A DNA stretch of 64,000 bases from Octopus vulgaris (Eukaryota): positions 33,728,001-33,792,000 of the forward strand of contig OX597825.1 of assembly GCA_951406725.2 (NCBI GenBank). The letters run 5' to 3'. Positions 1 through 56,591 of the stretch are shown here, piece by piece; position 1 is the first letter of the stretch; the number at the start of each line of letters is the position of its first letter. Below the pieces are notes generated by a model. The model saw only the letters and a program-made list of their open reading frames with translations. It did not search any database and had not been told where the DNA came from. The position numbers were made by a program, and so were the translations under genes.

Positions 1-71
1 TGCGGAAGGGTCTATTACATCTTGACTATTCAGAAATATTTATTAAAGGGGATAAATTAATCCCTCACCGT

Positions 72-74
<3 letters not shown>

Positions 75-134
<60 letters not shown>

Positions 135-2785: not shown

Positions 2786-3184
2786 TCAGTTGTAACAGAC
2801 CCTACACACTTTTAGTATTGGTGTGTATTGAATAATTAACCATTTTTGCATGATAATACAAAAAATTAGTGTGCGTGTGTGTATGTATGTGTGTGTGCAC
2901 GTGCATTCTGTGTGCATGTGTATGTATCCATACACATACATATACATACCTACACACATATGAATACATATATATATATATATATATATACATAAACAAA
3001 TACATACACATGCATATACATTGATATATACATGCATACATACATTTCTACCACTATTTCTTCAATATCGGATAATGAATACAGCAGGCTCCGAGAGAGG
3101 ATTGGAACTGTTTCCTCTGATGAAGCCTGTAACAAGTAACATGAAACTTGTAATTGGTATAACACTAGGATAAAGAAAAGATTA

Positions 3185-3914: not shown

Positions 3915-4675
3915 AGGCAGCGAGCTGGCAGAATCGTTAGCACGCCGGTTAAAATGCTTAGCGGTATTTCGCCCGTTGCTACGTTCTGAGTTCAAATTCC
4001 GCCGAGGTCGACTTTGCCTTTCATCCTTTCAGGGTCAATAATTTAAGTACCAGTTGCGTACTGGGGTCGATCTAATAGACCGGCCCCCACCCCAAAAATT
4101 TCGGGCCTTGTGCCTAGAGTAGAAAAAAATATTGTAATAAGCAAAGTTCCAATAATAAAACAATTTAAAGCAAATAAAATCTATTGTTACGGGAATTATT
4201 TTAACGAAACGAAAGAAATATTCTTTTCCACTCTAGGCACAAGGTCTGAAATTTTGGAGGAGGAGGGTAGTCGATTGATCGATCCCAGTACGCAACTGGT
4301 ACTTAATTTATCGATCCCAAAATGATGAAAGGCAAAGTCGACCTCGGCGGAATTTGAACTCAGAACATAATAATGGACGAAATACCTATTTCTTTACTAC
4401 CCACAAGGGGCTAAACACAAAGAGGACAAACAAGGAAAGACAGACGGATTAAGTCGATTATATCGATCCCAGTACGTAACTGGTACTTATTTAATCGACC
4501 CCGAAAAGATGAAAGGCAAAGTCAACCTCGGCGGAATTTGAACTCAGAACGTAACGTTAGACGAAATACTATTTCTATTTCTTTACTACCCACAAGGGGC
4601 TAAACACAGAGAGAACAAACAAGGACAGACAAACGGATTAAGTCGATTATATCGACCCCAGTGCGTAACTGGTTC
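3915..4675. mobile_element. SINE A plus copy (3915-4130) and minus-strand tandem trimer (4215-4675)
   Basis: Repeated core, with unit junctions at GTAAAGAAATAGGTATTTCGTC. Confidence 0.85.
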
Positions 4676-7645: not shown

Positions 7646-7984
7646 AGCAGAAGTAGTGGGGGAACATCATAGGCATGTGTGGAGAGGAATTCTTTGGGGG
7701 TTTGGCTAATTCACATCTAGAAACATGGGTGTTTTGTACAACATCCTTAAACTAAACTTTTCAATGGAACCTTTCGAGCAGGATGGGCTACTCGACCCAA
7801 AGAAAATTCTAAGTGCAAGGTTATGCATTGTTTATCTTGATATGAGATCACCATGTCGCATACATGTGGTTGTGATGCATGTGCCTAATGTACTCTTATC
7901 AGACGGGGTAGTCATGATGGGTATACTGGGCTTCTTATATTTTACCGCAGTGTCACTTTGATGCCATGCACTGCTCTCCCACAC
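7646..7984 (+). mobile_element. Non-coding (AAT)n-tailed retroposon, family D
   Basis: Four copies: 7646-7984(+), 11054-11485(+), 12900-13294(-) and 22962-23420(-). They share the 3' end GCATGCACTGCTCTC next to (AAT)n/(TAC)n tracts and have variable 5' ends. Confidence 0.75.
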
Positions 7985-8024
<40 letters not shown>

Positions 8025-10810: not shown

Positions 10811-11485
10811 TTTTGCCACAAGGGAAGCTTGGAGGAGGTGGAGATGAGTCGATTTCATCAACCCCAGTATTCAACTGGTACTTATTTTATCGACCCTGAA
10901 AAGATGAAAGGCAAAGTCGACCTCGGCGGAATTTGGACTCAGAACGTAGCGACGGGCGAAATACCGCTAAGCATTTTATCCGGCGTACTAACTATTCTGC
11001 CAGCTCGCTGCGTTAGTAACAACAATAATAACAACAACAACAACAATAATAATTGCTCAATACCATAGATTTGCTTGTTAGTTGTTTGACCTTAACCAGC
11101 TGAGCATGTCCCTTAGTGGCTGACGATATGTGCATCTCTAATCATGAGCATCATAGTGGGGGAGCATCATAGCAGTGTGTTGAAAGGAATTCTTAGAGGT
11201 TTGAACAATTCACCTTTGGAAACTTGGGTGGTTCATTCAACATCCTTAAACAATCCTTATTTAAGGACCTTTTGAGCGGGATGGGTTACTCGACCAGAAG
11301 AAAATTCTAACTGGGCCCCACCTGCAAGGTCATGTGCTGTTTATCTTGATATGAGATCACCATGTCGCGCATATATGGTTGTGATGCATGTGCCTGGTGT
11401 ACTCTTATCAGACGGGTAGTCATGATGGGTATACTGGGCTTCGTATATTTTACCCCAGTGTCACTTTGACGGCATGCACTGCTCT

Positions 11486-12899: not shown

Positions 12900-13309
12900 G
12901 AACGAGAGAGCAGTGCATGCCATCAAAGTGACCTTGTAAGTGGGACCAAGTTAAGATTTTCTTAACTCCCTGAATAAGGGTTCTTTAACGATGTTGAACG
13001 AAACACCCATGTTTCCAGAGGTGAATTATTCACACCTTAAACAATTCCTCTCCACACATGGGTATGATGCTCCCCCACTACTTCTGCTTGTGATCAGAGA
13101 TGCAGATATCGTCAGCCACCAAGGAACATGCTCAATTGCTTAAGGTCAAACATCTGACAAGCAAATCTGTGGTATTGAGCAGAATATTAGCTGTAGCCCA
13201 TCTTTTACACCAAGACAAAACATTTACATGATAACACTTCTAATCAGTTAAGATCAGGAGTAATGAGAGCCAGTGCCTGGTACTGCATCAGGGTAATTAT
13301 TATTCTTTT

Positions 13310-22614: not shown

Positions 22615-22732
22615 AGAATTCACACAAAGAAAAACAAAAGACGAAGACAGGTGGTGTAGACAATAAACATATATATACATTATTTACATTATTTACATTT
22701 GACGGATATTTGTCCTCATCTTGTTTGTTGTT

Positions 22733-22778
22733 AACACAACGTTTCTGCTGATATACCCTCCAGCCTTCTTCAGGTGTC
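22733..22778 (-). ncRNA. Minimal type-I hammerhead motif (PLE family E), one stem II mismatch
   Basis: Minus strand: GACAC CUGAAGA A GGCUG..CAGCA GAAA CG UU GUGUU. Confidence 0.6.
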
Positions 22779-22827
22779 TTGGGGAAATTTCGAACCTGGG
22801 TTCTCATTCTTAAAGTATTTTTCGATG

Positions 22828-22888
<61 letters not shown>

Positions 22889-22919
22889 GTAGTAGTAGTA
22901 GTAGTAGTAGTAGTAGTAA

Positions 22920-22963
<44 letters not shown>

Positions 22964-23420
22964 AGTGAAAGAGCAGTGCATGCCGTCAAAGTGACTCTGG
23001 GGTAAAATATACGAAGCCCAATATACCCATCATGACTACCCGTCTGATAAGGGTACACCAGGCACATGCATCACAACCATATGTGCGCGACATGGTGATC
23101 TCATATCAAGATAAACAGCACATGACCGTGCAGGTGGGGCCCGGTTAGAATTTTCTTCTGGTCGAGTAACCCATCCCGCTCAAAAGGTCTCTGATTAAGG
23201 GTTGTTTAAGGATGTTGAACGAAACACCCATGTTTCCAAAGGTGAATTATCCAAACCTCCAAGAATTCTTTTCAACACACGGCTATGACACTACTTTTTC
23301 TTAGCCACCAAGGGACATGTTCAACTGGTTAAGGTCAAACAACTGACAAGCAAATCTGTGGTATTGAGCAGAATATTTGCTGTTGCCTATCTTTTATACC
23401 AAGACAAAACAATGTACATG

Positions 23421-23459
<39 letters not shown>

Positions 23460-23460
23460 T

Positions 23461-23715
23461 AGGTCACTGCTTGGAATCGAAAATCGGAATCTTTGGGGTT
23501 AGTAGTCCGCGCTCTTAACCACTACGCCATATGCCCACAGGCATCGAAAAATACCTTAGGAATGAGAAACCAAGTTCGAAATTTCCCCGAGACACCTGAT
23601 GAAGGCTGGAGGGTATATCAGCCGAAACGTTGTGTTAACAACAAACAAGATGAGGACAAATATCCGTCATATATGAATAATGTACATAATTCCCCATCTC
23701 TTAAATATAGAACTG

Positions 23716-23717
<2 letters not shown>
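23461..23717. mobile_element. PLE family E terminal module: tRNA-like cassette (minus, 23461-23536) inverted relative to the hammerhead block (plus)
   Basis: Minus-strand A-box TGGCGTAGTGG and B-box TTCGATTCC. Plus block CATCGAAAAATACC...TTAAATATAGAACTG. Confidence 0.7.
23591..23636 (+). ncRNA. Minimal type-I hammerhead ribozyme motif
   Basis: Stem I GACAC/GUGUU, core CUGAUGA(+A), stem II GGCUG/CAGCC, GAAA, palindromic AACGUU in place of stem III, GUU cleavage triplet. Confidence 0.7.
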
Positions 23718-39789: not shown

Positions 39790-40405
39790 CAGTTCTATAT
39801 TTAAGAGATGAGGAATTATGTGCATTATTTACATTTGACGGATATTTGTCCTCATCTTGTTGGGGAAATTTCGAACCTGTTATTATTATTATTAATATTA
39901 TTATTATTAAGATCACTGCATGGAATCGAACTTTTGGGGTTAGTGGCCCGCGCTCTTAACCACTACGCTATATACCTGTGGGCAATTACGGAGTGAATTT
40001 TAGGGCTTATAAATCTAATATTTTCCTATCTTTCCTTAATACCAGTTCCCATATGCTACTCATATCTGCACTCGGGTTTTCGTATTTTCCAGTGGTATTC
40101 TCAGTCTATTATTTTAACTTCATCTCACGGGGGGGATGTCTCCATTTTTCCATACATTTTCAGCTATACCCGATTTATCAATATCTCCTCGTGTCACAGC
40201 TTTGCGATGTTCATCTACTCTTATTTTGAGGGGCGAAATGTTTCGCCTTTGTAATAACCTACCACAACTACATGGGATGGAATACATGCAGTCTTTGGTC
40301 ATATTCTCTTCTATTGGTGGTTTTACTGGAAGGAGATATTTGCGAAGTGTTGTATTACTCTTGAATACTAACCTGATGTCATATGGGCCGCATATTTTTT
40401 GTACC
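39790..40405 (-). mobile_element. Penelope-like element 3' portion (GIY-YIG + tRNA-like cassette + family E terminus)
   Basis: FKSNTTLRKYL...DCMYSIPCSCG...LKIRVDEHRK...SGIAE.VW, then a tRNA-like sequence at 39911-39975. The hammerhead segment is deleted in this copy. Confidence 0.8.
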
Positions 40406-40883
40406 TGGACCTGTCTGTGTGGTAGGAACTTTGCACCTTTGGAAAATTGTCTTCTACTCTAGCCCTGGGCAGACCAAGGTCTTGTGAGTGGATTTAGAAG
40501 ACGGAAACTGAAAGGACTCTGGTGCTGGTTTGTTTATATTTTCGTAACTTAATGGTTCGGGAAAATGAGTCCGATATGATAAGCACCAGGTTTAGAAAGA
40601 AATAAGTACTGAAGTCGATTTCTTCAACTAAAATTCTTCAAGGCATTGCCCCTAGGGACTTGAGTGTTGTGTGTGCATGTGTGTATGTGGATACGTGTGT
40701 GTATGTGTGTATGTGTATGTGTGTGTATGTATATATTTTTTTGTGTGTATGTGTATGTGTGGTCGTGTGTGTGTATATATACATGTGTGTGTGTATGTGT
40801 ATATGCATGTATATGTGTATGTATGTATATGTATAGGTATATATATATATATATATATATATATGTAGATATATGTATGTATA

Positions 40884-54869: not shown

Positions 54870-56591
54870 GCTGATATCTTGAGTATTGAGGTGATGGTGC
54901 ACAAGTGCTGAGTGCTGGTGTATGTAGAGTGGTAAGGTGTTTGTGGGTGGGTATGTAATGGTGTGTGAAGTGAGTAATGATTTGAACAGTGTATGGTGGT
55001 ATGTGTGTGGCGAGAGTACCGAGGTAGGCGGTATGCAGCGTGTAGGTGGAGGGGAGAGGCAGTTGAATGTGGGAGGTGTGTGGGAATCTGTGAGGGGTGG
55101 TGTCAGATGAAAAGAGATAGCTAGTTGAGCCCATACTGCGCAAAGGAACTAAGCGAGATTTAAGTCAATGCTTGTTCGCGGCGAAGGCGAGAGTCCGGGT
55201 GGCCCATGTGCAGAGACAGTCCGAATGACCGGTAGAGTGGAAGTGGCGCGAGACCGGGGTGTCATTGCCGGGTCTGGTGTCTCAAAAGTGCTCCGCGAAC
55301 CGGTCAGCCAAGCAGTATCCCATTTGACCAATGCAAAAGGAAAGACAGGGAGAGCAGGAGATGCAGTAAATAACATTACTGGAGGTGCAGGCAAAGGAGT
55401 CGGTGATGTGATAAGGATGGCGGTGGGTGCCAGTGAGGACAGCGGTGTCGGAGAGGTAGGAGCAGGTGCGACAGTGTGGGCGAGAGCAGGGGAAGGAGCC
55501 AGGCTGCGAGGCAGGGGTAGGGAAGAAACTGGACCAGGAGGTCACGGAGGTTATGGGTTCCTTTGATAAAAGGAAGGGGTGAGTTAGAGAAGATGTGTAA
55601 GGTGGAAGGGTCGGACTTGGATCACCGGAAGGCTCGGAGAATGGTGCGTTAGAGGGGTAGAGTAGAGGGGTGGTAGGTGAAGGGAAAGGGAAGACGGGTA
55701 AGGGTGGGGCGGATGCGAGGGGAAAGAGCAAAACCATGGTTCACAGATCGTCCCCGGGCAAGGGCAGTGTGGATAATGGTGACGGAATATACATGTAGGG
55801 TGAAGTGGCGGGCCATGAGTTGAAACTGGGTCTCAAAATCATGGTCATCACTGCAGAGCCAGCGTAGACGGAGGAAATGGAAGTAGGGGATGGAGAGCTT
55901 GATGTGGGTAGGGTGGAAGGAGGAGAAATTATGGTAGGAGTATGAGTCTGTGTGTTTGTAGTGGATGGAGGTTGTGAGAGCGGAGTGGTGTATGCAGACA
56001 GAAATATCGAGAAATTCGACGGAAGATTTAGAGACAGTGTAAGAGAATTCGAGGACAGGAGGGATGAGGAAGGTTTCTACAAAGGAGAGGAAAGTGTCAG
56101 GATGTTCACGGGAGAGTGAGCTTGCGCCGATATAGTCATCGACTTAACGACCTTATAGCTCAGGAGTGGGACCAGCGAACTGTGAGAATATCTGGGCCTC
56201 AACATAGTCAGTAAACAGGTTCGCATAGTTGGCACCCATTCTCGCTTCCATAACCACTCCTGAGAACTGTTGGTAAAACTCGCCCACGAACGAGAAGCAG
56301 TTGAGGGGGAGGACAAGTTCGGCCAAACGAAAAAGTGTGAAGGTCTCAGGCTGATGGTCTGGCTAAAGGTCAAGGAAGTGTTTTAGCTTAAGTAGGCCTT
56401 CGTTGTGTGGGACCACCGTGTACAAAGATTCAATGACGAGAGTAAACAGAAGTTGAGAGAGGCCAGGAGGGAAGGAGAAAGAGTTAAACAGACAGAGAGC
56501 ATGCTTGGTGTTGTGAATGTATGAGGGGAGGGAAGCCACTAGGGGAACAAAGACACGGTCGAGGTACTTGGAGATCATTTCGGTGGGCAGT
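54870..56591 (-). mobile_element. Penelope-like (Neptune-type) retroelement: RT + GIY-YIG pseudogene
   Basis: ISKYLD, ESLYT.VPH.EG, MGANYANLF, FLDISV..TSIHYK.TD, SIPY..FLRLR..CS, CSRPHCRTC, NVIYCISC...CIGQ...LADRFAEH. Confidence 0.9.

Follow-up and report, generated by a model that had tools for sequence, protein, structure and literature searches.

A Penelope-like element of Octopus vulgaris with a tRNA-derived head, a probable Pol III promoter, in front of its hammerhead-bearing coding frame

The genome of Octopus vulgaris carries a Penelope family in which a tRNA-derived head stands before the (AAT)n tract, start codon and hammerhead-bearing coding frame. Most sampled copies start at this head, which argues that it is likely the site of an RNA polymerase III (Pol III) promoter. 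This family was analyzed from a stretch of 64,000 nt (contig OX597825.1, positions 33,728,001 to 33,792,000, forward strand), here called the window and numbered from its first letter. Window positions 23461-23717 are the junction of two back-to-back, damaged Penelope end repeats, part of a single head-to-head insertion that module mapping places at 22679 to 23715. An earlier note on this DNA had read 23461-23717 as one module coupling a tRNA-like cassette to a hammerhead ribozyme. That reading does not hold here, because head and hammerhead are read from opposite strands (minus and plus, respectively) and belong to opposite arms of the insertion. The features of this locus and of the two other loci of the family in the window are as follows.

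22679-22889, minus strand: remainder of the left arm, with (AAT)n, ORF start, hammerhead and a short 3' end without tail
22890-23420, minus strand: unrelated 5'-truncated element with a trinucleotide tail, inside the left-arm (AAT)n
23421-23460, minus strand: first half of the (AAT)n tract downstream of the left-arm head
23461-23536, minus strand: tRNA-derived head of the left arm, of full tRNA length, with tRNA position 1 at 23536
23473-23483, minus strand: B box of the left-arm head, damaged (the family's G lost, a TTTT run gained)
23505-23499, minus strand: CT-ACT-AA loop of the left-arm head
23519-23529, minus strand: A box of the left-arm head, same as the family majority
23532-23544, no strand assigned: head-to-head junction, a TGCC-CACA-GGCA hairpin (23532-23543) and then a CAT microhomology jump into the right arm
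23562-23715, plus strand: ORF codons 1-51, open in the right arm and stopping at the family's long (tailed) 3' end
23591-23636, plus strand: minimal type I hammerhead in codons 11-25, predicted cut after 23631
39790-40407, minus strand: second locus, with a frameshifted GIY-YIG-type ORF end, linker, head, (AAT)n, a deletion and a tailed end
2607-2785, no strand assigned: third locus, a short inverted pair without head, its hammerhead without the 3' half

The left arm runs from the head through (AAT)n, a 460-nt foreign insert, more (AAT)n and the hammerhead region to the short end. What had been counted as four copies are three loci, since 22670-22890 and the head at 23461-23536 are one minus arm split by the insert. 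The motifs named in the note are present as described (A box, CT-ACT-AA, (AAT)n, hammerhead core, ACGU, GUU and ORF end), including TTCGATTCC within 23483-23473 on the minus strand; the local B box is damaged relative to the family. The left-arm hammerhead (22780-22734, minus) has a broken closing pair in stem II. The right arm has lost its own head and (AAT)n, keeping 12 nt of leader up to the CAT microhomology jump; its hammerhead looks intact, and the arm runs on to the long (tailed) end, giving the insertion one tailed and one tailless arm. The plus-strand hammerhead consists of stem I (23591-95/23632-36), the core at 23596-23602 with one extra A, stem II (23604-09/23618-23), GAAA (23624-27), the palindromic ACGU and the GUU at 23629-23631. 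No target-site duplication is evident at 22679-23715, where the flanks on both sides are (AT)n-rich. With its damaged, TTTT-bearing B box, a broken left hammerhead and its parts on opposite strands, this locus would be unable to make the RNA proposed below. ARAGORN returned 0 tRNAs in the window or in locus L111, and Rfam gave no tRNA or hammerhead match in either, its matches being microsatellite noise. At the second locus, the ORF end occupies 40407-40010 and the head 39977-39910, and the deletion has removed the hammerhead.

Several other repeats occur in the window. The insert at 22890-23420 (minus) belongs to a repeat of ~530 nt with a fixed 5' start, seen also at ~7667-7985, 11038-11485 and 12904-13230, and elsewhere in the genome at L274, L362, L397, L191, L241 and L322. 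An (AAT)n or similar trinucleotide run precedes its start in nearly all cases seen, and a trinucleotide tail is found at its end; it sometimes forms tandems and has repeatedly inserted into the (AAT)n of the tRNA-headed Penelope. Possibly it is a non-autonomous element that depends on a LINE targeting (AAT)n, such as Dong/R4. A decayed copy of a second Penelope type lies at 55250-56575 (minus), with a C/T-rich coding strand; its relatives at L402-L430 (77% identity) make up a young family whose open frames exceed 1000 codons, and which served as a control. A MITE-like element of ~260 nt with long imperfect terminal inverted repeats is found at 4045-4305. Further CUGAUGA...GAAA spacings at 3117 (+) and 24633 (-) are possibly decayed hammerheads of other families.

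In the 2.8 Gb genome, exact patterns of the family match 1395 and 4111 times and controls 0 times (the first being a 25-mer of the head, against 0 for its reversed control), so there are thousands of copies at least. The unit is made up of a head, (AAT)n, an 835-codon frame for reverse transcriptase (RT) and GIY-YIG endonuclease, whose opening codons after the ATG hold the hammerhead, then a linker and the next head. The order that the earlier note had assembled from partial copies (ORF end, head, (AAT)n, hammerhead, terminus) is thus borne out by colinear genome copies. One of them, L138, is arranged as a partial tandem, in which an ORF end, head, (AAT)n and hammerhead lead into a continuing ORF that is followed by its own end, a second head, a hammerhead and the short end; all 30 of its bins are covered by contigs in four sequencing runs, although contigs carry no start, strand or level information. 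The column majority, built from the long copies among 30 loci and resting on no more than 1-4 copies at the alignment ends, has a single 835-codon frame with its ATG ~118 nt after the start of the head. Because the frame is open for 51 codons from 23562 in the window, the hammerhead there can be placed in codons 11-25, within the coding frame.

Two natural protein pieces exceed the Pfam cut-off for RVT_1; Pfam found nothing for a third, and a PDB search gave weak RT matches only. By pairwise comparison, identity is 40% to an Anolis protein and 39% to a Branchiostoma protein, against 28-30% for the second Penelope family that served as control. The C terminus is 43-45% identical to proteins carrying the GIY-YIG family PF01541 and has the same motif. 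The element belongs to the EN+ Penelope-like elements: it has a single ORF with RT and C-terminal GIY-YIG; a pseudo-LTR (the repeat-ORF-repeat of L138) together with many inverted pairs; and an optional 30-40 bp tail, its two clusters of 3' ends lying ~25-31 nt apart. Two oddities may be mentioned here. In the 17 nt preceding the head, the linker that follows the ORF stop imperfectly mirrors the first 10 nt of the head, which looks as though an ancient snap-back was fixed in the master element. At L373, L378, L382, L391 and L400 the ORF start is fused directly to the element's 3' end, which suggests that reverse transcription often switches position within a single RNA.

Over its full length the head can be aligned with the genome's tRNA genes (25 distinct genes of six isotypes were compared). 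The best two matches are both tRNA-Arg, with scores of 62 and 59.5; the best of 500 shuffles scores 42. In the family majority the A and B boxes are intact and at tRNA spacing, the A box being matched in 235 of 281 arms and the B box in 197. When loci were collected by BLAST with the ORF end alone, 26 of 30 had a head directly after a 23-nt linker; one of the other four has an internally deleted head, judged by eye, and three have none. A search with the hammerhead region found a same-strand head upstream in 19 of 30 loci. The head is therefore a fixed part of the Penelope terminal repeat; whether it is fixed in autonomous copies was one of the checks that had been proposed. The proposal had also named what would speak against it, an independent SINE absent from most of the family. 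This was not found: among 190 sampled heads, 155 have the Penelope body in view downstream, and most of the remaining 35 are interrupted in (AAT)n by other inserts. These 35 share no second body, having in common only inserts that target (AAT)n; a SINE with a different body was rejected for this reason.

Short copies were compared with ORF-linked ones at 18 variable sites, in 220 and 61 arms respectively. Common non-CpG variants are mostly equally frequent in both; the lowest p values (0.006-0.008, including one non-CpG site) fail correction and come from sites in the head used for sampling. The lower divergence of short arms (3.5% vs 4.3%) and three CpG differences were set aside as bias from sampling with exact motifs. 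Since the two kinds of copy share their variants, there is no sign of a separate SINE or retrozyme lineage of the kind the earlier note had envisaged, and the short copies look like products of the same masters as the ORF-linked ones. Like a tRNA-derived SINE, the element carries at its 5' end a tRNA-derived head that includes both an A and a B box. A separate lineage whose partner lacks the head was not found, however, nor was a simple-repeat or A tail, (AAT)n being internal and the 3' ends lying in coding sequence. As its head is part of an autonomous element, this is not a tRNA-derived SINE.

The core CUGAUGA...GAAA, stems I and II, a palindromic stem III and an NUH site can all be read from the sequence, with a fold z of only -1.6. 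Minimal hammerheads of this type are described, in the available part of PMC4209133, as cleaving weakly and as dimers. The ribozyme does not define where copies end: none of 205 sampled arms entering the hammerhead end at the predicted cut. Three end before it, 105 at +45..66 and 91 at +78..84. These are the short and tailed ends known for Penelope (PMC8557442, in part). Nor do the copies resemble non-LTR retrozymes, for which boundaries at the ribozyme cut and direct tandem arrays would be expected; a few same-strand neighbors were observed in the sample of 25-mer places described below.

The cut site has nevertheless left a possible trace. A 3-nt gap there occurs in 24 of 206 arms, more often than any other deletion; one in the nearby AAC repeat occurs in 6. 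It is unlinked to 34 other variable sites after correction (best association p 0.008), and inverted pairs carrying it are discordant in 17 cases and concordant in 2, so that origin from a gapped master copy was rejected. The gap is likely a jump of the reverse transcriptase across the cut through a 2-nt overlap; it could also be slippage in a GT-rich stretch.

The 5' ends are more sharply placed. For the 25-mer, the first 100 places were examined: the match to the element breaks off 0-7 nt upstream of tRNA position 1 in 79 of them and continues for at least 18 nt in 21, with no case at 8-17 nt. Because this sample is blind to ends inside the head, a second one was anchored in the B box. Here, 18 of the first 90 places end inside the head, over ~40 nt; among the 72 that reach its start, 60 end within ~7-9 nt of position 1 and 12 run at least 110 nt into an ORF end. 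For 16 of the 60, the aligner scored further upstream sequence, which was read by eye as mirror or junction sequence without linker. Both samples are first places on one contig, were selected by exact motifs, and contain a few arms that are duplicates or partners in one insertion. ORF-less copies beginning at the tRNA, which the earlier note had proposed to look for, are therefore common; copies without the ORF account for about four in five heads. Only four of 30 copies holding the ORF start reach the start of the head, and three of these begin there while one extends upstream. L138 and L385 reach upstream of their first head, which means that some templates had an earlier start or were joined products. 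Taken together, the pile-up makes it very probable that the 5' end of the element's RNA lies at the head.

If Pol III reads the whole unit, TTTT runs should matter. The 2.88-kb coding strand of the column majority, including the stretch from head to ORF end, has none; natural copies have 24 in 51.7 kb. The number expected in the ORF is 2.9 by synonymous permutation (P0 0.03) and 4.4 by base shuffle (0.01), and 2.3 and 1.5 under two Markov nulls (P 0.10 and 0.22). GGGG is likewise absent from the majority ORF, with 3.0 expected. The second, young Penelope family of the genome has 5-6 TTTT runs in 3.2 kb, and five control ORFs have 19 against 26 expected (~0.73). The missing TTTT may be taken as a modest hint that Pol III reads the ORF.

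Several accounts of these ends and of the head can be weighed. The one proposed in the earlier note, a ~170-nt Pol III RNA whose 3' end is cut by the hammerhead and which moves as an independent SINE or retrozyme, draws on the resemblance of head plus hammerhead to the SINE-like elements of Schistosoma (PMC6765202, in part), and the cut-site gap suggests that some cleavage occurs. It is very improbable as an account of mobility. With no arm ending at the cut and 196 of 205 running 45-84 nt beyond it, the processed RNA is not the mobile template; the ribozyme is embedded in the ORF, no variant is private to the short copies, and head and cut are 115-425 nt apart (42 arms, median 217). Such an RNA may exist as a by-product without insertions. 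A different possibility is that the head is a relic of a captured tRNA or SINE, that the RNA is made by Pol II, starting near the head or reading through, and that a hairpin stops reverse transcription or makes it snap back. The 5' pile-up does coincide with a hairpin, at -17..+10 of the head start, that is the element's second-strongest local 30-nt hairpin and in the top 0.3% of its 30-nt windows as RNA and as cDNA, and mirror sequence is centered on it at many junctions. This coincidence, and the spread of the 5' ends over ~16 nt, count against the promoter reading. Against the relic account, the strongest local hairpin, in the ORF, stops just 2 of 13 copies reaching it, compared with the 60 of 72 at the head (Fisher p 3.6e-6, in a selected sample); many 5' ends at 0 to -7 have no mirror sequence; and the family majority has intact boxes and a coding strand free of TTTT.

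Translation is where a Pol II origin would be least troubled, an uncapped Pol III RNA being a problem to translate. Autonomous elements are argued to need Pol II in the available part of PMC10886601, and the known Penelope promoter, in Drosophila, is LINE-like with an intron (PMC2377424, in part). Even so, the relic account, though a serious rival, is judged unlikely on balance. The same difficulty would be avoided by a division of labor, in which the promoter step is the same as in the preferred reading and Pol III makes short head RNAs only, a kind of built-in SINE, while protein comes from Pol II read-through messengers. The preponderance of ORF-less heads and the two ORF-bearing loci that extend upstream of their first head agree with this. 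However, an intact unit offers Pol III no place to terminate, given a majority without TTTT from head to ORF end, and three of the four informative ORF-start copies begin at the head; this account, too, seems rather improbable. The reading preferred here, a Pol III-driven Penelope, is the likeliest: an RNA that starts at the head, is transcribed by Pol III and is copied mostly uncut from internal start sites is considered probable, with good though not strong confidence, and the same holds for Pol III as the polymerase of the head-started RNA.

In the preferred reading, the head-started RNA, likely a Pol III product, would serve as the template, with reverse transcription primed at two internal sites ~120-130 and 154 bases into the coding frame, by analogy with the Anolis element PAc. 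Both sites lie so close to the RNA's 5' end that a cDNA begun at either would reach the head after only ~270-300 nt; no separate SINE would then be needed to account for the thousands of short, SINE-like copies. ORF-bearing copies would result where a read-through RNA is primed in its downstream repeat. Two cDNAs, or one snapping back, could be linked through the small palindrome with which the RNA starts and so give head-to-head pairs, typically with one tailed and one tailless arm, as at 22679-23715. Most RNAs would escape cutting by the dimer-type hammerhead, and the gap in about one arm in nine likely records jumps. The short and tailed 3' ends support this explanation: PAc, with ends of the same kind, is described as priming internally on unprocessed RNA (PMC11167929, in part). 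Less certainly, the same Pol III RNA may also be the messenger. A fuller version, in which the 2.9-kb messenger of the autonomous element is made by Pol III from a captured tRNA-Arg promoter and translated without a cap, is offered tentatively, as a possibility about which there is more doubt than confidence. The same tentativeness attaches to its corollaries: that TTTT would be kept out, that SINE-like 5' copies would be shed, and that minority cutting by the hammerhead in vivo would leave the scar.

Pol III promoters are regarded as a mark of non-coding parasites. If the preferred reading is true, a tRNA head directly before a Penelope ORF blurs the boundary between SINEs and autonomous elements, and offers a route by which SINE-like copies arise without a separate SINE. 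Thousands of short copies are probably annotated as SINEs. A tRNA-headed Penelope also makes the promotion and translation of Penelope RNAs testable, as well as cutting by minimal hammerheads in vivo. No such element is described in the full-text literature searched, which is separate from the repeat databases (Repbase, Dfam, SINEBase), from subscription papers and from supplementary repeat libraries; nor does one appear in the available parts of three cephalopod repeat papers (PMC13282606, PMC8967140, PMC6962438), again apart from their supplement libraries. The family itself may already be deposited in a repeat database or a supplement library, for example that of PMC13282606.

Among known systems, PAc (Poseidon, from Anolis carolinensis) is similar in having one ORF with RT and C-terminal GIY-YIG, a terminal repeat overlapping the ORF start, and a hammerhead at the ORF start (PMC11167929, in part). 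According to the same source its main template is unprocessed RNA, and it has two internal start sites, the first lying 111-118 nt inside the ORF and the second in a tail beyond it; those of the octopus element are at ~120-130 and 154. The octopus hammerhead core differs in being wholly after the ATG. The available part of PMC11167929 describes no tRNA-like head or Pol III promoter for PAc, whereas the octopus short copies pile up at the tRNA start. Penelope of Drosophila virilis likewise has a pseudo-LTR promoter driving the downstream ORF, partial tandems, inverted truncated copies and a 30-40 bp tail (PMC2377424, PMC8557442, both in part), but its promoter is LINE-like (Inr/DPE) with an intron, where the octopus candidate is of the A/B-box type (PMC2377424, in part).

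The closest parallels for the pairing of promoter and ribozyme are non-coding. Sm-alpha and Sj-alpha of Schistosoma also have a Pol III-type promoter followed by a hammerhead, but as non-coding tandem units freed by ribozyme cleavage (PMC6765202, in part); in octopus the pair forms part of a coding element, whose copies end elsewhere than at the cut. Cassandra, Helenus and Ajax (TRIMp3) have a small-RNA-derived Pol III promoter inside the terminal repeat and are non-autonomous LTR elements of <1.3 kb, with autonomous partners argued to need Pol II (PMC10886601, in part). Non-LTR retrozymes are, like the octopus short copies, short hammerhead-bearing derivatives of Penelope terminal repeats; they are described as direct tandem units, with no tRNA or promoter mentioned in the available part of the source (bioRxiv 10.64898/2026.07.22.740005), while the octopus copies are mostly solo or inverted pairs.

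The octopus element acts like a SINE at its 5' end, yet is not a SINE. Octopus SINEs OK, OR1 and OR2, attributed to Ohshima and Okada in 1994, reportedly have tRNA-Arg-related heads, and OR2 is said to be ~270 nt long, near the size of the short copies. OR2 has been classed as a CORE SINE (PMC4758252, PMC5804259, both in part), and is set apart by that description from the present family, whose body is Penelope coding sequence.
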